The notes: generated from the sequence alone by a model not told the origin. Counted from the stretch's first letter, positions 51,517 through 64,000 are shown. The stretch is DNA of 64,000 bases from Candidatus Doudnabacteria bacterium RIFCSPHIGHO2_01_48_18 (GCA_001777515.1 MFEF01000002.1:5354-69353), one strand, 5' to 3'. Numbers and translations are program-made.

Positions 51517-53190
51517 TCACCTCAGATTCAGACGGTCAAAGTCTGATTTGGTTTCCTCGAACATTCTCCCCAAGAATTTTTTGATGCTCGAGCCCACTCC
51601 CTGCTGCGTGCTTGTATTTTTTCCGTCCGTGCCGGTGGCAGCGGCGACGGCAAATTTGGGGTCCTCTTGAAAATCCAGGGTTTGCAAAAACTCTTCGCCC
51701 AGAGCCCTGCAAAGGTTAGATCTGATTTCGATCTCTTTGAGCGCTTCTTCGGTGAGAGTTAGTTCCCGGAAACCGGTAATCTTGGTCAGCTGATGAAACG
51801 TGAGATCGTGAGACAAATGCACTGGCCCTTCCTGTGACCGAATCACGCATTTGGTGAGCTTGAAATTTTTCTTGATGATCGCTTTCATGCGGTGATGAAT
51901 CGCTTCTGGCAAGCCTTTTCCAAAGTTTCCGATTTCCGCCAGACCGGGAAGATTTTTCATGATCTCATCATAAGTCATGATTTCCTCCGGAAGTTCCGCG
52001 ACTCGAGCATGCGCATTTTCGAGCTTCATGGCTTCGATCCAGTCAGGCAGGGCGGGGAAATCTCTCATTCGTTTGAAACGGGCCACGTTATCAATCGGTT
52101 CCACCGGCGCAATCGCGCCGTGTTCAAACAGCGCAAATTTGTGTTTCTGGGATGCAGCAATGAACGCTTCATGGAAGCGAAGAGACACCACAACAACTTT
52201 GTCATCACTGAGAGCTTCGCTGTTCATCTGGTGGATCTTGATGCGATTCTCAAGAGCAGATTGGCGCTCCTCATCTTTTCTGGCGAACATGGCGTTAACC
52301 GCTCCCACATTCCTTGGAGTGCGGATGACGCGGATGGCGCCTTTGAGCGGACGCTGCTGTTCCGTGAAGAGCCGGTTTTTCCAGCTTTCTTCGTAATGCG
52401 CTTTCATAGCCTCGGCATTGGCGAGATCTGCGATAGGCAACTCGATCCTGGTCATAGTGATTGGCCCGCATTCCTGGTAGAGCTCAGCCAGTCTGCGCCC
52501 GTCGATCTTTTTGCCGAAAGAATCCGAGCTAAAGATTGTGATTAGCGTATCGAGCAGGTCCTCAATTTGCCTGTCGAATTCGTCGTAATTGATTTCCTGC
52601 CCGCTCGTATCTGCCGCGTCCGTGCACATTTCCAGGTAGGGAATGCCGAGCTTCCTCATCTGTTCGAATACCACGTCGGCTTCCTCTACCCGCTGCCACG
52701 AGCTGCCATCTTCGACCGACGGCCGTATCGTGAGTGCGAAGGGGATGATTTTCTTGCGGTTTTTGTCATCAGTCTGGGCGAGAATCAGCTTCAGGATTTC
52801 TATCAGCGTGCCGCGGCCAGTGTTTCCGCCCAAAGCTACAATGACGACAATGATCTGCGTGAGTGCCAGGACCAGCTTTTGAAACTCGTTCTGCACTGAT
52901 TTGGTGAGAAACGAATCGCGCCCTTCTTCCGCGCTTCCCGCGCCATTCATCCGGCCATCGCCGTAACGGATGATCTGCAGCAGCCTTGCTGTAGATTTCT
53001 CGCGTTCCAGGGTGGCATGCTCCGTATTCCCAGCAACGAATTGGATGGTTTCCTTAAGCGCATCAATTCGCGAGGGATCTGACGCCGCCCATTTTTTGAA
53101 TCGTCTCTCTAGGATGCGAGCGGCAATCGCCGCAATCTGCACGCCAACGTTGCCTGAACCGAAAACCTTGATCCGTAGCCGTTCTTCCAT
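51517..53190 (-). CDS. divergent FtsZ/tubulin-superfamily GTPase with ~240-aa C-terminal extension (557 aa)
   Basis: FtsZ GTPase motifs occur in canonical order and spacing: T1-like KVFGSGNVG (aa 8-16), T2 QFVAGNTEHATL (cf. FIAVNTDAQAL), T3 GDGRMNGAGSAEEGR (cf. GLGAGANPEVGR), T4 ALGGNTGRG (cf. GGGTGTG), T7 INYDEFD (cf. NVDFAD) at about aa 200. The T1 box is atypical. The C-terminal 240 aa have no recognisable family. Confidence 0.6.
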   Translation of the reverse strand: MEERLRIKVFGSGNVGVQIAAIAARILERRFKKWAASDPSRIDALKETIQFVAGNTEHATLEREKSTARLLQIIRYGDGRMNGAGSAEEGRDSFLTKSVQNEFQKLVLALTQIIVVIVALGGNTGRGTLIEILKLILAQTDDKNRKKIIPFALTIRPSVEDGSSWQRVEEADVVFEQMRKLGIPYLEMCTDAADTSGQEINYDEFDRQIEDLLDTLITIFSSDSFGKKIDGRRLAELYQECGPITMTRIELPIADLANAEAMKAHYEESWKNRLFTEQQRPLKGAIRVIRTPRNVGAVNAMFARKDEERQSALENRIKIHQMNSEALSDDKVVVVSLRFHEAFIAASQKHKFALFEHGAIAPVEPIDNVARFKRMRDFPALPDWIEAMKLENAHARVAELPEEIMTYDEIMKNLPGLAEIGNFGKGLPEAIHHRMKAIIKKNFKLTKCVIRSQEGPVHLSHDLTFHQLTKITGFRELTLTEEALKEIEIRSNLCRALGEEFLQTLDFQEDPKFAVAAATGTDGKNTSTQQGVGSSIKKFLGRMFEETKSDFDRLNLR

Positions 53191-53199
53191 ATCTGCTCC

Positions 53200-54417
53200 T
53201 CATGTAAATTTCAGCGTTAAAATTCCTTTGTCATCCTCAAAGCGAAAACTTTCCTTCTTGAATCTGGCATCGCCGATTCGTTGCATCGTCCTTTCTATGT
53301 GTTCTTCCGTGTCCGGTATTTCTGACAATTTTTTTCTCCTGAGCTGGCCAACGATTTCGATAATAAGTTTCCCGTTTTTTGGGTCAGGATGAGGCTTGAT
53401 TACCAGTGGTTCCTGGTTTCGATCAGTCCGCTGCCTTTTGATCAGCTCATCGCGCAGCTTGTCAGCGTATTTGCGCATAGCTGGATTGAGCCAGTCAACA
53501 CCAATTTCCCTGATTTGCTCTAGGCTGATTTTGCCCAGTCTATGAAATTTAATAAAGGGAACGGTGTACTGATTTAACCCCTCTTTGCCTGTTTTATGCC
53601 CGAGAGTCGCTCCTGCTTCGCTGTAGACCTGCTTCGTTTGTTCAAGTACTGTGTTTAGGCCGGCAGGAATTTTGTTGGCGTCGTATATGATGATGGCACG
53701 CAGCGGCCGGATTTTGAGCCAGCTGTCGTTTATATGAGTGCCAGCTTGCGCGGCGCGATGAATGATATCGTCTCTAATGAGTCCGAGTTTTGCGCGTTTT
53801 TGTGATTTCGGAACCTGGAAGAACTTCGGAAAGGACGACTTAGCGATACGAGGCCGGTACCTCGCTATCACAAAGATCAGTACTGCAGAGGCAAGAACGG
53901 CTGCTATAGCCCACAAAATAACCGGCTGCAGATAAGTTACTTTTTCCATCTGTACAGTCGGCAGGGGCAGACTTGGTGGGGGAATCGCCGGTGAAAAAGT
54001 TTTGGGAATGTAGACTGTCTGATCGAGTGCTTGCCGCGGATTTCTGATTTCATTTATCGCGCTCAAGCTTTTTAAACAATCAGGATTTACGTACTGCTGG
54101 CAAATCGCTGCTAGCGATTGATTGTTTGACAGAATCGCAGTTGTTTTAACCTGATCTTTTTGAATCAAGACTTGCCAACCTGGACGAATCAAATGCTTGT
54201 TGCTTCTTACTCGCCCCCGGTTGTCCATTACCAATACCCAATTGGCTTTCCAATTCGCAGCGTTTCGCGTGGCTCGCAGAGCAATACGGCCAACTGTGTC
54301 ACCTTTTTCTACTGCAACTGTTTCATAGTTCTGTTTGTTTGGGATTTGCGCTATCGCCTCTTGGCCATAGGCAAAAAACCCCAGCAGCAAAAAGAACTGG
54401 ATAATTCTTTTATACAT
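53200..54417 (-). CDS. bitopic membrane protein: signal peptide, LysM-like extracellular domain, single TM, ~210-aa cytoplasmic domain
   Basis: N-terminal signal peptide (IIQFFLLLGFFAYGQEAIAQ), LysM-like YETVAVEKGDTVGRIA ... IRPGWQVLI, TM VILWAIAAVLASAVLIFVIA. SD GGAGGA lies before ATG 54417 (the TTG at 54420 is in frame). The gene ends 9 nt before the FtsZ-like gene on the same strand. Confidence 0.55.
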   Translation of the reverse strand: MYKRIIQFFLLLGFFAYGQEAIAQIPNKQNYETVAVEKGDTVGRIALRATRNAANWKANWVLVMDNRGRVRSNKHLIRPGWQVLIQKDQVKTTAILSNNQSLAAICQQYVNPDCLKSLSAINEIRNPRQALDQTVYIPKTFSPAIPPPSLPLPTVQMEKVTYLQPVILWAIAAVLASAVLIFVIARYRPRIAKSSFPKFFQVPKSQKRAKLGLIRDDIIHRAAQAGTHINDSWLKIRPLRAIIIYDANKIPAGLNTVLEQTKQVYSEAGATLGHKTGKEGLNQYTVPFIKFHRLGKISLEQIREIGVDWLNPAMRKYADKLRDELIKRQRTDRNQEPLVIKPHPDPKNGKLIIEIVGQLRRKKLSEIPDTEEHIERTMQRIGDARFKKESFRFEDDKGILTLKFT

Positions 54418-54561
54418 CAATCCTCCGAATTTTGCTTTTGAAAGTTTCTTGCCTGCTTGCAGGACAAGTTATGATTAAAGCTATCAACTCGAAAATAGCG
54501 CTCCTATGTAGAAGCGCACAGAAGAAACAATATTTTTCGTTTCAATTTTTTGCCGATCGCA

Positions 54562-57733: not shown

Positions 57734-58720
57734 CTAAAGTTGCGCGAGAGAAAGAATTTCCGTGATCTGGAACAGAACGAACATCAGATAGACTACAATA
57801 AGCACTGCTCCTTCCGCGGGAGCCAGGCGGTTTTTGTGCCGTGAAAAAATAAAAAATAGCACATAGCCCAAAATGATGATGAAAAATATCGGCGTGAAGC
57901 CGCGTGTTTCAAGCTGGAACGACCCGTGGATAAAAGTCAGAATCGCGAATAAAGCTACGTTCGTCGCGGCCGAGCCGATGTAATCGCCAAACGCGATTTC
58001 GGAATGTCGATTTTTCATCGCTCTCGCGGCGATGGTTAGTTCCGGCAGATTGGTTCCGATTGAAAGAACAAGAAGACTAATCAGCAGAGAAGGCACCCCC
58101 AGGGCTTCGGAGAGGGAAATTGTTTGCTCGACCAAGATTTTACCGGCAATGTAAATCAATATTGCTCCAATCACGATCGCGAGCAGATCCCTGCTCAGGC
58201 GGTTTTTTTTGCTGGACTGCTCGAGTTTGTCCAAAATGCGCTGTTCGCGCTGAAACAAGTTTATAAACAGCAAATAGAGAATCAAAAGCAGCCAGGCGTC
58301 AGAAATGCTAACTTGTCCATCCAGCGTTACAAAGGACGGAGCGGCGATGAGGACTAAAAAGAATAAAAGTTTTTTCAGGTCCAATTTGCGGCGGAAAGCA
58401 ATACCGCCGTTCCAGATCGCAAGCATTGGAACGATCAGCATCAAAATCACGAATGAACCGCCGATAAGGTTTCCGACAAAGATAGACGGTTTTTTATCCA
58501 GTACCGCGTTGAGACCAACCGAAATCTCAGTGAGCGAGGTTAAAAATCCCAGAATAAGGAAAGATGTGGCGAATGAGGAAATTTTGGTGCTTTTTGAAAA
58601 GCGTTCCACGCCCCTGACAATCAAGCCGGAAGCAACCCAAATGATGCATAGGCCCAAAATAAAGAAAAACAAATTCGCGATAAGCATATTTTCAATGTAC
58701 CATATTTGTGAAATTGTCAA
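57734..58720 (-). CDS. Ca2+/cation antiporter (CaCA family, YrbG-like)
   Basis: Two alpha-repeat motifs: GTSLTEISVGL-like (FLTSLTEISVGLNA) and GTNLPELTIAARA. About 10 TM segments. Confidence 0.75.
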   Translation of the reverse strand: MTISQIWYIENMLIANLFFFILGLCIIWVASGLIVRGVERFSKSTKISSFATSFLILGFLTSLTEISVGLNAVLDKKPSIFVGNLIGGSFVILMLIVPMLAIWNGGIAFRRKLDLKKLLFFLVLIAAPSFVTLDGQVSISDAWLLLILYLLFINLFQREQRILDKLEQSSKKNRLSRDLLAIVIGAILIYIAGKILVEQTISLSEALGVPSLLISLLVLSIGTNLPELTIAARAMKNRHSEIAFGDYIGSAATNVALFAILTFIHGSFQLETRGFTPIFFIIILGYVLFFIFSRHKNRLAPAEGAVLIVVYLMFVLFQITEILSLAQL

Positions 58721-58765
58721 AATGCCGTAATTGTTGTATAATTTTTTTAAAAGCTAACATATTTT

Positions 58766-59299
58766 ATGGATACTGGCGCTGGCGCGATCGCTAAACTGAG
58801 CGAAGAGTTTTCCCGGCATGTCACGAACGGAAAACTTGGGCAATTTTTTCCTTCAATGCAGGCGAGTACTGCCGTGAGCATGCTTACGCGCGATCTGGAA
58901 ATGAAACGCGAATTGGGGCATTTGTCTGACGCTGAAAAGGCAATCCTCAGTCAAATTGACGATTTGTGGGAAGATATAGCTAAATATAACCAAAGCGCGG
59001 ACAAGAACACGCCGCCTCCGGCAGAACAGGTTTATAACCTCGCGGAAAGCAAAATGCAGGACGTACCGGAAGAAGCAGCGCCCCCTGCTCATCAGCCGAT
59101 TTCGTACGAGCAAGCGGATCAGATCATCGAGGGCTTGAACAAGCAGTTTGAGGAAAAAATCATGAGCAAACAGCGGCACGATTTGGAAGCTGGACGAAAT
59201 TTGCAGGAATATATGGCCGCGGTTCAAAACAAAAAACTGCGCATTCCCTTTGCTGGAGAAGAAAGCCAGATTGATTTGAGCAAGCTTAAAAGCGCGTAG
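58766..59299 (+). CDS. hypothetical acidic protein (177 aa)
   Basis: First gene of a tightly spaced + strand operon. Low-complexity acidic and Pro-rich middle region. No family recognised. Confidence 0.4.
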   Translation: MDTGAGAIAKLSEEFSRHVTNGKLGQFFPSMQASTAVSMLTRDLEMKRELGHLSDAEKAILSQIDDLWEDIAKYNQSADKNTPPPAEQVYNLAESKMQDVPEEAAPPAHQPISYEQADQIIEGLNKQFEEKIMSKQRHDLEAGRNLQEYMAAVQNKKLRIPFAGEESQIDLSKLKSA

Positions 59300-59300
59300 C

Positions 59301-59645
59301 GTGTATTACGATTTAGAACAAAAAATCGAAGACTATTCCGAAGAGCTGTTTATTGACCTGGGCTTGGCGACCCTCACGGAAGAAACCAAGGCTGACCTTT
59401 TCGCGCGGGTGCAAAATCATTTGCACCAGGTCATCGCGGAAATAGTTAAGCAATATTTGCCCGCCCCAGATGTCACGAAAATCAATCAAGCTCTCAGTGA
59501 AGAAGACTATCGCGCGCTCGATGTGGTCCTAAAAAATTACCCGCAGTACAAAGAGCAATTGGAAACAAAAATAGACGAAGAATTTGCAAAATTAAAACAA
59601 ACAATTTCCGAGGAACAAACGAATGCCAGACTTCAATCGAGCTAA
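59301..59645 (+). CDS. hypothetical acidic helical protein (114 aa)
   Basis: Lies 1 nt after the previous stop. Predicted all-alpha, acidic. Confidence 0.4.
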   Translation: MYYDLEQKIEDYSEELFIDLGLATLTEETKADLFARVQNHLHQVIAEIVKQYLPAPDVTKINQALSEEDYRALDVVLKNYPQYKEQLETKIDEEFAKLKQTISEEQTNARLQSS

Positions 59646-59982
59646 AGGTGAGAAATCCGATTTTGAACACATTCCGCCACAAGAAACCAAAGACGTAGCA
59701 GAGAATTTGCCAGATGGCGCAACGGCTCAAGATCTGCAAAGCGAAGTTGTGACCGCGGAAGTTCCTTCTTTGGAACTCCCAGATATAGTAAATCCAGAAC
59801 CGGACACGGGGAATCGCGGCGAGCTCCATCCTGCATTGGTTGGAGTAAAGGGCTTGGAATTTGCCAGAAGAGTTATCTCTGAAACTGCCCGCAAAAAGGC
59901 GGTTTCAGCTGCAGACCTGGAGCAGGTCAACGACCTGCTCAGCGAGCACATAGAACAAAGAAACAAAGACCAAAATGGCTGA
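59623..59982 (+). CDS. hypothetical acidic protein (119 aa)
   Basis: Overlaps its neighbours on both sides, consistent with translational coupling into the ATPase gene. Confidence 0.35.
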   Translation: MPDFNRAKGEKSDFEHIPPQETKDVAENLPDGATAQDLQSEVVTAEVPSLELPDIVNPEPDTGNRGELHPALVGVKGLEFARRVISETARKKAVSAADLEQVNDLLSEHIEQRNKDQNG

Positions 59983-62482
59983 ACAAATGTTTATTATTTT
60001 GCCTTGGCTGCTGGCCGCGTTAATAGTCGGCCTGGCAGCGGTTTTTTGGTACCGCGGAAAGCTGCGTCTGCGCCTCGCTGGCGAGAAACTTCTTGATTCC
60101 GTGTTCCTAGAGGTTTTGCTACCGCGCGAAAATACAGTAGCGGACAAAGAAAAAGAACCGGCCAAGGAAGAAAAAGAAATGATTGCGGTGGCGGAGCAGC
60201 TGTTTGCCACTTTGGGCCACGCGGAAAAAAGAAATTTTACTACTTTTTTGCGGGGGCACGAAACGATCAGTTTTGAGATCATAAGCGTGGACAAGAAAAT
60301 TTCTTTTTTGATCAACTGTCCGAGCCGCCTGCGCGATCTGCTGGAAAAGCAGATTCAGGCGCAATATCCGACGGCCCAGATCGACGAGGTGTTGCCGCCG
60401 AAAATCATTCGCAGTTCGGGAAAAATCGCGGCCCATGAGCTTGGACTGCAAAAAAAATACCTGTTTCCGATTAAAACCTACAAGGTCATGGAAAGCGATC
60501 CACTGAACGCGTTGGCAAACAGCCTGTCAAAACTCGGCGAAAAGGAATCAGCGGCATTACAGCTTGTGGTAGGTCCGGCGCCTTTAGGTTGGCGGGCGAA
60601 GATATTGCAGAGGGCCAGAGAAATCCAAAAAGGCCGTGACATTGAAATGCATGATGACTTTTTACTTAAAGTTCTAAATGTAATTGCCAGCGAAATCGGA
60701 GAGTTTATTTCCGGTAGCCCGCGCGGACAGAAATCTCCGCCTCCAGACGGAACCGACCCCGTGAAGGGAGCGTACAAGCAGCTCACCCCGCTTCAGCAGG
60801 ACGCTGTAAAAAAACTCGAAGAAAAGGCGTCAAAAAACGCGTTTGAGGTGAATTTGCGCGCGGTGGTATGCTCGGAAACCGCAGAAGCAGCGGCAAGCCA
60901 CATGCGTAATATCCTGGCTTCTTTTATGCAATACACGCATTCGCCGTTTAACGGCTTTCGGATTTTGCGAAAACCTCTTGCCAGGACCGCCAGGGACTAT
61001 GTGTTTCGCGCGCTGCAGGTCAAATGGCCGGGGAAAATTATTCTCAACACCGAAGAGCTGTCGAGTATATTTCATTTCCCGACAAAATACAATCAAACAC
61101 CCAATATCAAATGGCTGACGGCGAAACGCGCGCCGGCTCCTTTGAATATTCCAAAGGCCGGCTTGCTTTTGGGCATGAATAATTACCGTGGGGTCAAGAC
61201 TGAGGTCAGAATCGCCCCTGATGACCGCCGTCGGCATATGTACATTATCGGGCGCACGGGTACTGGCAAATCAGAGTTCATGAAAAACCTGGCGATTCAG
61301 GATATTCAAAACGGACAAGGACTGGCGGTTATAGATCCCCACGGTGATCTGGTTGAATCGCTCCTGCAGCACATTCCCAAAAACCGCGTTGACGATGTGG
61401 TGCTATTCGAGCCGTTTGATATGGCGCGCCCCATGGGTTTAAATATGCTCGAGGTTGATAATGACGAAGAAAAAGATTTCGCGGTCCAGGAAATGATTGA
61501 AATTTTTTACAAACTGTTTCCACCGGAAATGATCGGACCTATGTTTGAGCACAACATGAGAAATGTCATGCTAACTCTTATGGCGGACAAGCAGTATCCG
61601 GGAACGATCGCAGAAATACCACGGATGTTTACTGATCCCGAGTTTCAGCGCTATAAATTGACCAAGGTCAACGATCCGGTCGTCCGGTCTTTCTGGGAGC
61701 AGGAAATGGCCAAGACCAGTGATTTTCATAAATCAGAAATGCTGGGCTATCTGATTTCCAAGGTTGGCCGCTTCGTGGAGAACGAAATGATGCGCAATAT
61801 CATCGGACAATCGCATTCTGCTTTCAATTTCCGAAAGATCATGGACGAGGGGAAGATATTGCTCATAAATTTATCAAAAGGCAAGACGGGCGAGGTCAAC
61901 TCGAAATTGCTCGGACTGATCATTGTCTCCAAACTGCAAATGGGCGCGCTGTCGCGGTCTGACATTCCAGAAACCAGCCGCAAGGATTTTTATTTGTATA
62001 TTGACGAGTTTCAAAATTTTGTCACAGACAGTTTGGCAACCATTCTTTCCGAAGCCAGAAAATATCGCTTAAACTTGGTTATGGCCCACCAGTACATCAG
62101 CCAGCTCGTGCACGAAAACAATACCAAAATCAGAGACGCTGTTTTTGGCAATGCTGGCACAATTGTTTCATTTCGTATTGGCGTCGAGGACGCAGAAATC
62201 ATGGCTAGAGAATTCTCGCCAGTGTTCAACGATTTTGACGTGATTAATGTCGAACGGTTTCATGCTTATGTAAAACTGATGCTCAATGGCACCGCCTCGC
62301 GTTCCTTTAACCTCGAGACCATCCTCCCAGCGAGAGATGGGTCCGAATCAATGGCCGCGGCTGTCAAAAAACTCTCGAAGCTAAAATACGGCCGGTTGAG
62401 AGATGAGGTGGAAGCGGAAATTTCTCGCAACGCCCGGCTTGGCAAAATGCCAGCGGCCGCCGGCATTGAAAGAACAGTATGA
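59975..62482 (+). CDS. membrane-anchored FtsK/HerA-superfamily ATPase, VirD4/TrwB/TraG (type IV coupling protein)-like
   Basis: N-terminal TM (ILPWLLAALIVGLAAVFWY). Walker A HMYIIGRTGTGKSEFMKNL followed by AVIDPHGDL (cf. TrwB GATGTGKS ... IVDPNGD). Walker B FYLYIDEFQNFV. Arginine-finger/sensor region RKYRLNLVMAHQYISQL. Confidence 0.55.
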   Translation: MAEQMFIILPWLLAALIVGLAAVFWYRGKLRLRLAGEKLLDSVFLEVLLPRENTVADKEKEPAKEEKEMIAVAEQLFATLGHAEKRNFTTFLRGHETISFEIISVDKKISFLINCPSRLRDLLEKQIQAQYPTAQIDEVLPPKIIRSSGKIAAHELGLQKKYLFPIKTYKVMESDPLNALANSLSKLGEKESAALQLVVGPAPLGWRAKILQRAREIQKGRDIEMHDDFLLKVLNVIASEIGEFISGSPRGQKSPPPDGTDPVKGAYKQLTPLQQDAVKKLEEKASKNAFEVNLRAVVCSETAEAAASHMRNILASFMQYTHSPFNGFRILRKPLARTARDYVFRALQVKWPGKIILNTEELSSIFHFPTKYNQTPNIKWLTAKRAPAPLNIPKAGLLLGMNNYRGVKTEVRIAPDDRRRHMYIIGRTGTGKSEFMKNLAIQDIQNGQGLAVIDPHGDLVESLLQHIPKNRVDDVVLFEPFDMARPMGLNMLEVDNDEEKDFAVQEMIEIFYKLFPPEMIGPMFEHNMRNVMLTLMADKQYPGTIAEIPRMFTDPEFQRYKLTKVNDPVVRSFWEQEMAKTSDFHKSEMLGYLISKVGRFVENEMMRNIIGQSHSAFNFRKIMDEGKILLINLSKGKTGEVNSKLLGLIIVSKLQMGALSRSDIPETSRKDFYLYIDEFQNFVTDSLATILSEARKYRLNLVMAHQYISQLVHENNTKIRDAVFGNAGTIVSFRIGVEDAEIMAREFSPVFNDFDVINVERFHAYVKLMLNGTASRSFNLETILPARDGSESMAAAVKKLSKLKYGRLRDEVEAEISRNARLGKMPAAAGIERTV

Positions 62483-62907
62483 CTACCCTGAAGGAAAACA
62501 TGTCTAAAGCTGTTTGTTTGTTTTTGGCGGAAATGCTTCGCACCAGAAAGGTTAAGCTTGATCGCTGCGCAGACATTGCCGCCGAGATTGTGAATCGTTT
62601 GGAATCTATTGGCAGCGAAAAACAATTTTTGGATGCCGTAAAAGAACTGGAGTTCGAGTTTCAGGAACTAAAGACTTTAAAAAATGACTTGCTTCAGGTT
62701 ACCAGCATGAGTTCGCGCCAGCAAATGGAACAAATTGTCAGAGAATACGCGATTCAAATTTTGCCCCATGATCCGAAACAGTCTATATTGCTGTTAGAAG
62801 AAGCGCTCAAAAGTGAAAGTACGCTTATTAGCCTCTCGAAGCGGTTTCCGGCTTTCGCTAAGTTCGCCGAAGACTACCTTGAAAGTAACAAAAAAATACA
62901 TGCATGA
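62479..62907 (+). CDS. hypothetical small cytoplasmic protein (142 aa)
   Basis: Overlaps the ATPase stop by 4 nt (operonic). No family recognised. Confidence 0.4.
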   Translation: MTTLKENMSKAVCLFLAEMLRTRKVKLDRCADIAAEIVNRLESIGSEKQFLDAVKELEFEFQELKTLKNDLLQVTSMSSRQQMEQIVREYAIQILPHDPKQSILLLEEALKSESTLISLSKRFPAFAKFAEDYLESNKKIHA

Positions 62908-63150
62908 TGAGCAACCAGAGAAATTGGACGATAACATAGAGACCAGTCCGGAAAAGGATGGCACATTACATATGGAATGGGCGAGTCGCCTTGAGCATCC
63001 CGAAAGCGCTTTTTGGCACTCTTTGAGGGATTTGGCCATGCGTTCCGTTCGTTTTTGGAAAAGACATTGACGCCGGCGAGATTTAGAGTTATAATAACAA
63101 TACTGTTTTCTGACAGTCTTTGATACAAAATTTCAAATTAATACAAAACT

Positions 63151-63756
63151 GTGGATAAACTATCAAATTTAGCGCTTTTGGCGCAAATGCTAGAAAGCGC
63201 GGAAAAAAACATTCAATCTGCGAAACAAATCCTAAGGGAAATAATGGGGTCAAAAGCCCCAATTTCTGCTATTGCTGAAAAGGCGAAAACTGTTTCCATT
63301 AGCGGGGGTGGTAAAATCATTGAAGGCGTGTTTGATGGACAAAATATGATGGGCCCTGACGGCAAGAAATACCCGGTCCCGGCAAACTACGCTTCAAAAT
63401 CAAAACTAGTCGAGGGTGATGTGTTAAAGCTGACAATATCAGACGACGGTTCTTTCATTTACAAGCAAATTGGTCCGGTGGAGCGCGAAAAGAAACTCGG
63501 CATCCTGTCACAAACCGAAAACGGAGAATACCGCGTTATCGTGGACGGCAAGAGCCACCGCGTACTACTTGCGTCTTTGACCTATTTCAAGGCTGAGCCA
63601 GGTGACGAGGTCGCGATCGTTGTGCCTCAGGGTCAGGACAGCGAATGGGCGGCTGTAGAAAATGTTATTAAGCATGACGGTACGCCTGGTCCGGGAGCGA
63701 TCGCTGACAGTCCAAAGCCAGACGAAGATATTGACAGAGATTTGGACCTTGAATAG
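63151..63756 (+). CDS. hypothetical protein (201 aa)
   Basis: Clean ORF with a short intergenic gap. Predicted N-terminal helix and a beta-rich middle. Unknown family. Confidence 0.4.
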   Translation: MDKLSNLALLAQMLESAEKNIQSAKQILREIMGSKAPISAIAEKAKTVSISGGGKIIEGVFDGQNMMGPDGKKYPVPANYASKSKLVEGDVLKLTISDDGSFIYKQIGPVEREKKLGILSQTENGEYRVIVDGKSHRVLLASLTYFKAEPGDEVAIVVPQGQDSEWAAVENVIKHDGTPGPGAIADSPKPDEDIDRDLDLE

Positions 63757-63766
63757 ATGAGGTTTG

Positions 63767-64000
63767 CCGCAAAAGATTTTTGGTCGAGCATTATCACCGG
63801 GTTTATCACCGGCGTCATTGCCTGGAAAATCGCGGATTTTTTGGAGGTCCAAAGGGTCGGCGATTTTTCATTTGCTTGGCTTACTGTCCTCGTGCCAGTG
63901 TGCTGGATAATCGGTGTCAATTTTGGATATTTTCTGGGACAGAAGATCGCTTTTTTTAATCAGTTTGGCAAATTTGTCGCAGTTGGTTTTACTAATGCTG
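63767..64000 (+). CDS. GtrA-like membrane protein, 5' part (continues past the window end)
   Basis: Hydrophobic N-terminus, then FGKFVAVGFTNA resembling the GtrA-family K-F-x-x-V-G-x-x-N-T box. Confidence 0.4.

Follow-up and report, generated by a model that had tools for sequence, protein, structure and literature searches.

Much of bacterial diversity belongs to the Patescibacteria, which depend on host cells for their living, and it is not settled how macromolecules cross from host to epibiont or back; the cargo of their type IV secretion system (T4SS), which is essential in the one species tested, and their uptake of RNA and DNA are unexplained. The closest described relatives of the gene analysed here are their VirD4-type coupling proteins. 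A recent survey counts 5,713 homologues of VirD4-type type IV coupling proteins (T4CPs) in 2,918 of 3,035 Patescibacteria genomes, with 148 of them near virB4, and VirB4 in 2,417 genomes (~80%), where it is chromosomal and falls as one clade within the monoderm MPF-FATA class (Quinonero-Coronel et al. 2025, PMC12102498). The same survey reports that the T4CP homologue of S. epibionticum is not essential and its T4SS is, its authors write that an exaptation of T4CP homologues 'cannot be ruled out', and the single Doudnabacteria genome visible in its Table S1 carries VirB4 (PMC12102498). Patescibacteria also possess type IV pili and ComEC competence genes (PMC12102498, PMC12857230), and Wang et al. 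(2023) found no recognisable coupling protein or relaxase in the essential T4SS cluster. Here we describe an operon of five genes, g1 to g5, and a sixth gene downstream, g6, in a 64-kb stretch (hereafter the window) of the chromosome of Candidatus Doudnabacteria bacterium RIFCSPHIGHO2_01_48_18, a metagenome-assembled genome (MAG) of the candidate phyla radiation (CPR, Patescibacteria). The largest product of the operon, the ATPase g4, and the published orphan T4CP homologues are almost certainly one gene family.

Sequence comparison classes g4 as a VirD4/TrwB-type ATPase and not as a HerA or FtsK housekeeping translocase, in agreement with the initial annotation of this locus. Three T4CP profiles of Pfam match it above their cut-offs (TrwB_AAD_bind with 45.4 bits against 20.5, over residues 412-741; T4SS-DNA_transf with 38.9 against 20.1; TraG-D_C with 29.5 against 22), the top NCBIfam model is the VirD4-like CD1115 family, and the best PDB sequence matches are TrwB and DotL, both for g4 alone (E 2e-7 against TrwB) and for a profile built from 51 diverse family members. 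When compared by hhalign, this profile aligned with TrsK, the T4CP of pSK41, over 307 columns at 89.7% probability, and with the VirB4 protein TrsE over 87 columns only. FtsK_SpoIIIE (PF01580) remained below its cut-off and was confined to the P-loop (E 0.052, 13.4 bits against 24), HerA_C was likewise below cut-off (E 0.071), the DUF87 match was limited to residues 409-526, and HerA structures ranked beneath T4CPs in both structure and profile comparisons. There is no NurA-like gene adjoining g4, the multi-span N-terminal domain of FtsK is replaced by a single transmembrane helix, and the FtsK gamma (KOPS-binding) domain did not appear among the family matches, no search having been aimed at it.

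The motifs point the same way. g4 contains Walker A GRTGTGKS, IDPHGD, Walker B YIDEF and QYISQL at verified coordinates; the first two had been described as arranged exactly as in TrwB, and the motifs align with its GATGTGKS...VDPNGD and LQSTSQL as similar rather than identical sequences. The catalytic residues K432, D677, E678 and Q706 are invariant in the 51 diverse members, as are several polar residues of the N-terminal domain. In an AlphaFold2 model, an all-helical segment at about residues 497-625 is flanked by the strand that follows Walker A and the one that precedes Walker B, so that the motor is predicted to carry the all-alpha insertion that T4CPs have in their nucleotide-binding domain.

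The ATPase core could also be taken as the sign of a module for defence against phages with a HerA/DUF87-type ATPase at its centre, as the PADLOC model mad8 matches residues 418-722 at 5.3e-15, HerA and DndH models respond as well, and DUF87 matches g4. These matches, however, cover the generic core only, 0 of the 5 neighbours match any PADLOC model, a nuclease, Sir2 or methylase partner is absent from the locus, and the gene is universal, syntenic and highly conserved whereas defence islands are patchy. We consider this explanation very improbable.

The initial annotation had named an N-terminal transmembrane helix and an ATPase core in g4. The helix is indeed present, as a single one, and it is directly followed by the basic stretch RGKLRLRL, which places the N terminus outside and the remainder of the protein in the cytoplasm. 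What had been overlooked is the domain of ~365 residues between helix and motor, which corresponds to PF26449 (DUF8128) by a precomputed match for an identical protein, our local Pfam copy having reported no DUF8128 model in any scan. The AlphaFold2 model of the whole protein has a predicted local distance difference test (pLDDT) score of 80, and an AlphaFold model of the N-terminal domain alone reaches a pLDDT of 86.7 and a pTM of 0.84. In Foldseek searches of the PDB, the whole model found full-length TrwK/VirB4 first (1e-16, ~900 aligned columns), with TrwB behind it (2e-12, TMt 0.61), and all 14 significant matches of the N-terminal domain alone were TrwK/VirB4 chains (E 8e-7 to 8e-4, probability 1.0), the next match being an unrelated one at E 0.017. 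Since TrwK comes first for the whole model and is the only significant match for the N-terminal domain, g4 would be laid out in two domains like VirB4, its motor being VirD4-like by sequence, and the predicted fold of the DUF8128 domain is that of the VirB4 N-terminal domain. Membership of VirB4 itself is not seen in the sequence of g4: AAA_10 gives E 0.099, CagE_TrbE_VirB does not match, TIGR00929 gives E 0.012 with 13.8 bits against a cut-off of 643, and VirB4 is not among the PDB sequence matches of the family profile. TrsD of pSK41, which is said to resemble the VirB4 N terminus, was tried as a counterpart of DUF8128, and hhalign found nothing. Fusions of VirB3 with VirB4 exist, and the layout of g4 with its transmembrane helix resembles them.

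We tentatively read g4 as the substrate receptor and motor of a patescibacterial T4SS that is encoded elsewhere in the genome, with acidic accessory subunits, and put this at slightly less than an even chance. Under this reading g4 would form a putative membrane-bound ring and would serve as receptor and ATP-driven feeder of a T4SS derived from monoderm conjugation systems, onto whose inner-membrane complex it would dock by its VirB4-like domain. The translationally coupled acidic proteins, g3 foremost and g1, g2 and g5 as lineage-specific additions, would be accessory subunits, acting in trans as fused acidic C-terminal tails of other family members may do, either to gate the motor or to select the substrate. 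The cargo is probably something other than conjugative DNA, because no relaxase is present.

In favour of this T4SS role are the T4CP profiles, the predicted VirB4-like N-terminal domain, the relatives of g4 that hold the position of the coupling protein in conjugation-like modules, and the acidic ORF that recurs upstream of the ATPase (see below). The published figures agree with it in that a T4SS occurs in ~80% of genomes and T4CP homologues usually lie away from virB4 (PMC12102498). That the gene is a core gene is supported by the 1946 cluster representatives of the family, the invariant catalytic residues and the housekeeping flanks. Several observations weigh against the same role. No T4SS gene is linked to g4 in the 64-kb window and ~8 kb beyond it. 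The matches of the N-terminal domain to TrwK are remote similarities of a predicted model with modest TM-scores (TMq 0.37-0.44), and at the sequence level the VirB4-like fold found no support in comparisons with VirB4 N-terminal profiles or TrsD. We infer the accessory role of the acidic proteins solely from their position and composition. Phage homologues have the same architecture without a full T4SS. Finally, T4CP homologues are found in more genomes (2,918/3,035) than VirB4 (2,417), and S. epibionticum can do without its t4cp homologue but not without its T4SS (PMC12102498). The wider spread and the dispensability fit a T4SS-independent role, and they could alternatively be due to MAG incompleteness or to redundancy between two paralogues.

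Our comparisons show g4 to be a chromosomal gene of vertical descent that belongs to a large coupling-ATPase family of Patescibacteria. It is 100% identical to a protein of Ca. Doudnabacteria bacterium RIFCSPLOWO2_12_FULL (GCA_001777875.1, MFFJ01000031.1), a full-length search returned >3,200 proteins of which the best 120 are all 57-100% identical, and mean column identity among close relatives is 71-72%. A phmmer search with DUF8128 matched 1,946 cluster representatives (clustering at 50% identity), with 845 reaching E <=1e-10, and in all 1,946 the DUF8128 match is N-terminal. In the longer members (940-1694 residues) the extra length consists of C-terminal low-complexity tails, mostly acidic (pI ~4.1-4.7); these tails hold no Pfam domain, and domain fusions therefore gave no clue to function.

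Outside the Patescibacteria, tblastn against plasmids and phages found full-length relatives, N-terminal domain included, at 21-28% identity. A 913-residue 'DUF87' protein of a B. subtilis plasmid aligns with residues 98-807 of g4 (24% identity, E 4e-40); its gene immediately precedes that of a replication-relaxation protein, and the cluster also encodes a TcpE-family protein and a VirB4-like AAA_10 ATPase. On a haloarchaeal plasmid (Natrononativus, L170 6755-11121; L numbers denote loci in our comparisons), the N-terminal domain, a 439-residue hypothetical protein, and the motor, a 1016-residue 'TraM recognition domain' protein, are separate overlapping genes that adjoin a large 'conjugal transfer protein'. 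Full-length homologues are also found in Bacillus phages, as PHROG 5156 (function unknown), which matches g4 residues 73-820 at 5.8e-89; in phage CampHawk (L172 3776-7313) the homologue is paired with a replication-relaxation protein near a ParM-like gene, and in phage G (L173 2189-6331) with a VirB-like protein. Small membrane proteins are encoded upstream of the Bacillus phage homologues. Given the occurrence of these relatives in conjugation-like modules of plasmids and phages, the architecture is an old variant of the monoderm conjugation toolkit, which agrees with the published origin of the patescibacterial T4SS.

The surroundings of g4 are those of a housekeeping region. The window is rich in genes for ribosomal proteins, RpoA, AlaS, LysS, SerS, CysS, Mur ligases, FtsW, DnaB and RecR, its GC content stays between 0.45 and 0.51 throughout, without a compositional break, and no tRNA gene was found in it. 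Across related loci the flanks vary and are again housekeeping genes, with SecY and ribosomal proteins upstream and g6, a GtrA-like gene and DnaX downstream. The initial annotation had seen no VirB4, VirB6 or relaxase gene nearby, and this is borne out: the 64 kb contain no VirB4-, VirB6-, TcpE- or relaxase-like ORF (open reading frame) and no second g4 paralogue, the TcpE and TrsF prototypes match none of the window's proteins, and the ~8 kb of contig read past the window end add no other T4SS gene. A complete conjugative T4SS just outside the window, which had been named as a possible refutation, is thus missing on the side that was read. No VirB3-, VirB6- or VirB8-like membrane protein adjoins g4, as none of its five neighbours has a transmembrane or hydrophobic segment.

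These observations bear on the view that the operon is a piece of an integrated conjugative or mobilisable element whose other parts lie outside the window. ATPases of the T4CP family usually belong to such elements, and the relatives outside the CPR are found on plasmids and phages. Nevertheless, the same housekeeping context (SecY and ribosomal genes upstream, g6-GtrA-DnaX downstream) is kept across dozens of species, identity at the sequence level is very high, in keeping with vertical descent, and plasmid matches are all <30% identical; neither a relaxase or T4SS channel gene linked to g4 nor an integrase was found in the 64 kb and ~8 kb beyond, and within the window there is neither a tRNA gene nor a shift in composition. 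An integrated element is therefore, in our opinion, scarcely credible. The suggestion that the lineage lacks classical machineries also fails, as ~80% of Patescibacteria genomes carry a VirB4-type T4SS, and pili and ComEC are present too (PMC12102498, PMC12857230). Contrary to the hope expressed in the initial annotation, g4 does not represent a novel type of machine from a lineage devoid of secretion systems.

ORF calling confirmed the five plus-strand genes, which are tightly packed or overlapping over 58766-62907, with the 1-nt gap and the overlaps that had been described (Table 1). The gap separates g1 from g2; the following junctions overlap by 23 nt (g2 and g3), 8 nt (g3 and g4) and 4 nt (g4 and g5, ATGA). 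A promoter-like site lies within the 78-nt gap between g1 and a divergent Na/Ca-exchanger gene, and a second one within the 243 nt that separate g5 from g6. The proposal of one operon from 58766 to 63756 therefore holds for g1-g5, which are a real five-gene operon, and not for its end, since g6 has a promoter-like site of its own and is probably a separate transcription unit.

Table 1. Features of the g1-g6 locus and of related loci.
Feature	Coordinates	Strand	Residues of g4	Description
Promoter-like site TTGTCA-17-TATAAT	58714..58742	+		ahead of g1; 11/12 of sigma-70-like consensus; consensus match only
g1	58766..59299	+		177-residue acidic soluble protein, net charge -9, pI 5.0
g2	59301..59645	+		114-residue acidic helical protein, net charge -11
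g3	59623..59982	+		119-residue acidic protein, low-complexity composition, net charge -11; GAGGA-like ribosome-binding site
g4	59975..62482	+		835-residue membrane-anchored VirD4-type ATPase, DUF8128 family
Transmembrane helix of g4	59990-60052	+	6-26	single hydrophobic helix, maximum Kyte-Doolittle 19-residue window 2.67
VirB4 N-terminal-domain-like domain (DUF8128), predicted	60080-61174	+	~36-400	PF26449 and predicted model
T4CP-like motor of g4		+	~401-835	Pfam/NCBIfam matches and motifs
Walker A GRTGTGKS	61250-61273	+		
IDPHGD	61331-61348	+		
Walker B YIDEF	61997-62011	+		
QYISQL	62090-62107	+		
g5	62479..62907	+		142-residue near-neutral helical protein, net charge -1
Promoter-like site TTGACG-17-TATAAT	63067..63095	+		ahead of g6; 11/12 of consensus; consensus match only
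g6	63151..63756	+		201-residue acidic protein
Phage LY1 homologue	L168 2005-4209			full-length ATPase relative
Recurring large/helical accessory proteins	L082 1088-7624; L006, L007, L011, L018 (-3.9 to -3.3 kb); L051, L060 (downstream)			

To follow the neighbours, we took 80 related loci from GTDB species representatives together with the window's own (81 in total) and searched them with phmmer and then with an iterated hidden Markov model (HMM). The small partners had been called strongly acidic, which applies to g1, g2 and g3 and not to g5, and of unknown family, which stands for g1, g3 and g5. g1 is lineage-restricted: it has homologues in 5 of the 81 loci (its own and the four closest) and no Pfam, NCBIfam, PADLOC or PHROG family. 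g2, found in 16 of the 81 after HMM iteration, appears linked to DUF5663 as a divergent relative. It has no Pfam match itself at E <=0.1, and the link runs through the iterated HMM and one member of its set (L018:7256-7552), which matches PF18908 (DUF5663) at 1.4e-6, above cut-off, and to which g2 is 26% identical in a pairwise BLASTP comparison (E 7e-4). In the distant locus L082, too, the ATPase has a DUF5663-like gene in its vicinity. Homologues of g5 directly follow the ATPase in 31 of the 81 loci, sometimes in duplicate; g5 has no informative family or PDB match, as its profile gave coiled-coil noise only against the PDB, and the idea that it is a degenerate Replic_Relax protein, which takes the same position in Firmicutes elements, was dropped at an hhalign probability <1%.

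For g3 we find a conserved position with a hypervariable sequence. It has no homologue outside its own locus (1/81) and shows no sequence similarity even to its counterpart in the closest relative, where the ATPase is 74% identical. g3 could not be traced as a sequence family, and comparing 68 upstream ORFs all against all produced tiny clusters only, with similarity confined to very close relatives. However, in 58 of 71 related loci an acidic ORF (pI <5.5, 90-220 residues) ends beside the start of the ATPase gene, compared with 11 of 247 control genes, i.e. other genes for >=300 residues in the same loci; the Fisher p of ~3e-39 is not a true probability because the loci are phylogenetically related. 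These ORFs have a median pI of 4.6 and a median length of 128 residues, and one is also present in the distant loci L082 (with a 4-nt overlap with the ATPase), L085 and L086. The expected conservation of the small genes with the ATPase thus holds for the upstream acidic position, and their sequences are poorly kept. In many loci an extended -10 element, TGGTATAAT (W-Y-N in frame), lies just upstream of the acidic ORF, which suggests that acidic ORF and ATPase are the minimal unit. Many of the upstream ORFs seem to start with M-W-Y-N or L-W-Y-N (L062, L065, L066, L071, L078, L028, L050 and L057); this is TGGTATAAT read in frame, and the true start codons would therefore lie a few codons further downstream.

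The divergence of g3 allows another explanation, in which the operon serves protein export and g3 is the cargo, a fast-evolving effector whose C-terminal pattern is the signal for its cognate coupling ATPase. ORFs in the g3 position are unrecognisable between genomes whose ATPases are 74% identical, as is typical of arms-race proteins, and a C-terminal pattern of ~35 residues, which looks like two short helices, recurs in them across lineages. T4SS effectors carry C-terminal signals, which the pattern of g3 resembles. Furthermore, there is no relaxase, and T4SS effector delivery to host cells has been the subject of published speculation. On the other hand, the pattern was seen by eye, with no statistics, the low-complexity N-terminal parts have no effector-like domain, low constraint on such sequence explains the divergence without an arms race, and the acidic tails fused to other members of the family suggest a role in structure or regulation. 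We regard g3 as cargo as distinctly improbable.

The best conserved neighbour of the ATPase is g6, which is found downstream of it in 55 of the 81 loci. It has an N-terminal helix, a strongly conserved two-unit core EGxFDG...PANYASKSKLVEGD that weakly matches beta-barrel families, and an acidic C-terminal tail. In L084 and L082, whose ATPases are only 33-39% identical, g6 again comes after the ATPase, and in L082 it lies between two ATPase paralogues. As a reciprocal test we collected 80 metagenome loci centred on g6 homologues (L087-L166). An ATPase adjoins g6 upstream in 9 of the 59 testable loci, and ATPase-g6-ATPase sandwiches were observed in L087, L099 and L107; the commonest neighbour is DnaX downstream (35 loci), and L10 and L7/L12 (rplJ-rplL) lie upstream in 17. 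The low rate of adjacency and the stronger link to dnaX indicate a pairing of g4 and g6 that is recurrent and not obligatory, and it may in part be old synteny. Attempts to identify g6 gave no answer: a profile search of the PDB found nothing, its homologues, at least 8000, are all named 'hypothetical' and none has a Pfam domain or name, and Pfam matches of the family remain sub-threshold (MazE/AbrB-like in 12 of 20 members, UPF1_1B in 11 of 20). Right after g6, running past the window (63757-64000; L001 13783-14409), there is a 208-residue basic ORF for a GtrA-family membrane protein (PF04138, 3e-15), which is absent from the gene calls of the contig and takes the same position in 48 related loci.

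The g6 data also bear on a different explanation, that g4 is a T4SS-independent nucleic-acid translocase, a stand-alone membrane motor like the archaeal Ced ATPases, FtsK or Streptomyces TraB. Its task would be to translocate DNA or RNA, through the membrane or along it, in uptake, segregation or repair, with g6 as nucleic-acid-binding partner. We judge this unlikely, and yet the leading alternative, favoured chiefly by the distribution and dispensability of the family, its phage homologues and its replication and repair neighbourhood. The gene is nearly always away from virB4, occurs in more genomes than VirB4 and can be lost in S. epibionticum, which needs its T4SS (PMC12102498). Replication and repair genes recur as neighbours (DnaB, RecR and DnaX here, DnaB and RuvC in L084), and g6 adjoins the ATPase both in Doudnabacteria (55/81) and in distant lineages, including the sandwiches of L082, L087, L099 and L107. 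The MazE/AbrB-like matches and acidic tail of g6 members, weak NCBIfam matches of g4 to CedD and CedB, phage homologues without a full T4SS, and the unresolved route by which Patescibacteria import host RNA and DNA are all compatible with it. Against this, g6 is most strongly linked to dnaX, has the ATPase adjacent in just 9 of 59 loci and possesses a promoter-like site of its own, so that the pairing could be inherited synteny, and its assignment to DNA binding depends on sub-threshold matches. The Ced, HerA and FtsK matches of g4 are limited to the P-loop and far under cut-offs, and one transmembrane helix makes no channel, so that a membrane partner would still be needed. An annotated ftsK is present in Saccharibacteria TM7x, which also weakens the idea that g4 replaces FtsK. 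In its widest form, the proposal would make DUF8128 ATPases, g6 and the acidic subunits a phylum-wide T4SS-independent motor that imports host nucleic acid or passes it to replication and repair, which we see as a long shot; the ATPases would then keep a VirB4-type N-terminal domain on a VirD4-type motor, and the two propositions together are given the same low chance. If true, such a motor would be the missing uptake motor of the parasitic lifestyle of Patescibacteria.

The locus varies among lineages. In distant lineages (L082 8001-13811, L107 3426-9508, L087 and L099), two DUF8128 paralogues flank a g6 homologue in one operon, which fits the published figure of about two T4CP homologues per Patescibacteria genome. 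In one locus a T4SS_pilin gene (PF18895; L085 576-1337) and a second pilin-like gene lie ~7 kb upstream of a DUF8128 ATPase, a rare proximity that speaks for the T4SS role of g4. In some lineages, large unannotated proteins (830-1030 residues upstream, ~1500 residues downstream) and pairs of helical proteins (~380-600 and ~95 residues) recur near the ATPase together with DUF5663 genes (Table 1), and this hints at a larger accessory gene set around the ATPase that is missing from the window. Elsewhere in the window, a 557-residue protein on the minus strand (51517-53190) opens with KVFGSGNVGVQIAAIAA and contains GGNTGRGT, by eye like the glycine-rich signature of FtsZ/tubulin; it has no Pfam, NCBIfam or PDB sequence match, and an FtsZ-like identity was set aside. 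The adjacent 406-residue protein (53200-54420, minus strand) has a weakly YneA/LysM-like N terminus and a transmembrane segment.

When compared with the T4CPs TrwB (R388), TrsK (pSK41, CD1115 family), DotL and Cag-beta, g4 has a homologous nucleotide-binding domain with Walker A and B and Q-x-x-S-Q-L, a predicted all-alpha insertion at the same site and an N-terminal membrane anchor. It differs from them by one transmembrane helix where canonical T4CPs have two, by an extra 365-residue domain between anchor and motor, and by being a core chromosomal gene without linked relaxase or T4SS rather than plasmid cargo. With VirB4/TrwK (R388) it would share the layout of an N-terminal domain and a C-terminal ATPase, but it fails membership by sequence, and Patescibacteria possess a separate bona fide VirB4 (PMC12102498). 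For the acidic proteins, CagZ with Cag-beta of H. pylori (title of PDB 8dol) and TraM with the TraD tail of the F plasmid (PMC8829557) are precedents for the binding of a coupling ATPase by a small partner or an acidic tail, to regulate it or to give it substrate choice; the resemblance concerns function alone, as neither sequence nor fold ties CagZ or TraM to g1-g3 or g5.

The nearest relatives outside the CPR are the DUF87 ATPases that accompany replication-relaxation proteins on Firmicutes plasmids and in Bacillus phages (PHROG 5156), and the haloarchaeal pair, which are homologous over the full length, N-terminal domain included, and for which we found no functional characterisation in the literature searched. 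Theirs adjoin relaxase-like, TcpE or VirB4-like genes or small membrane proteins on mobile elements, whereas g4 has acidic soluble neighbours in a housekeeping context. The orphan T4CP homologues of Patescibacteria resemble g4 most closely, being VirD4-type, chromosomal, present at about two per genome and rarely near virB4; the survey counts HMM matches, as published surveys of the g4 family do, and its accessible part does not describe the N-terminal domain, a VirB4-like fold, an acidic partner, DUF5663 or g6 (PMC12102498). Neither DUF8128 nor DUF5663 was mentioned in the literature searched. Thus, the orphan VirD4-like genes of Patescibacteria and, as Pfam DUF8128, the N-terminal domain were already known, and what is new here are the predicted VirB4/VirD4 hybrid architecture, whose relatives occur in both split and fused form, an acidic partner of hypervariable sequence, the recurring association with g6 and the tandem paralogues. 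The hybrid domains, acidic partner, g6 pairing and paralogues offer concrete experimental handles on this family.

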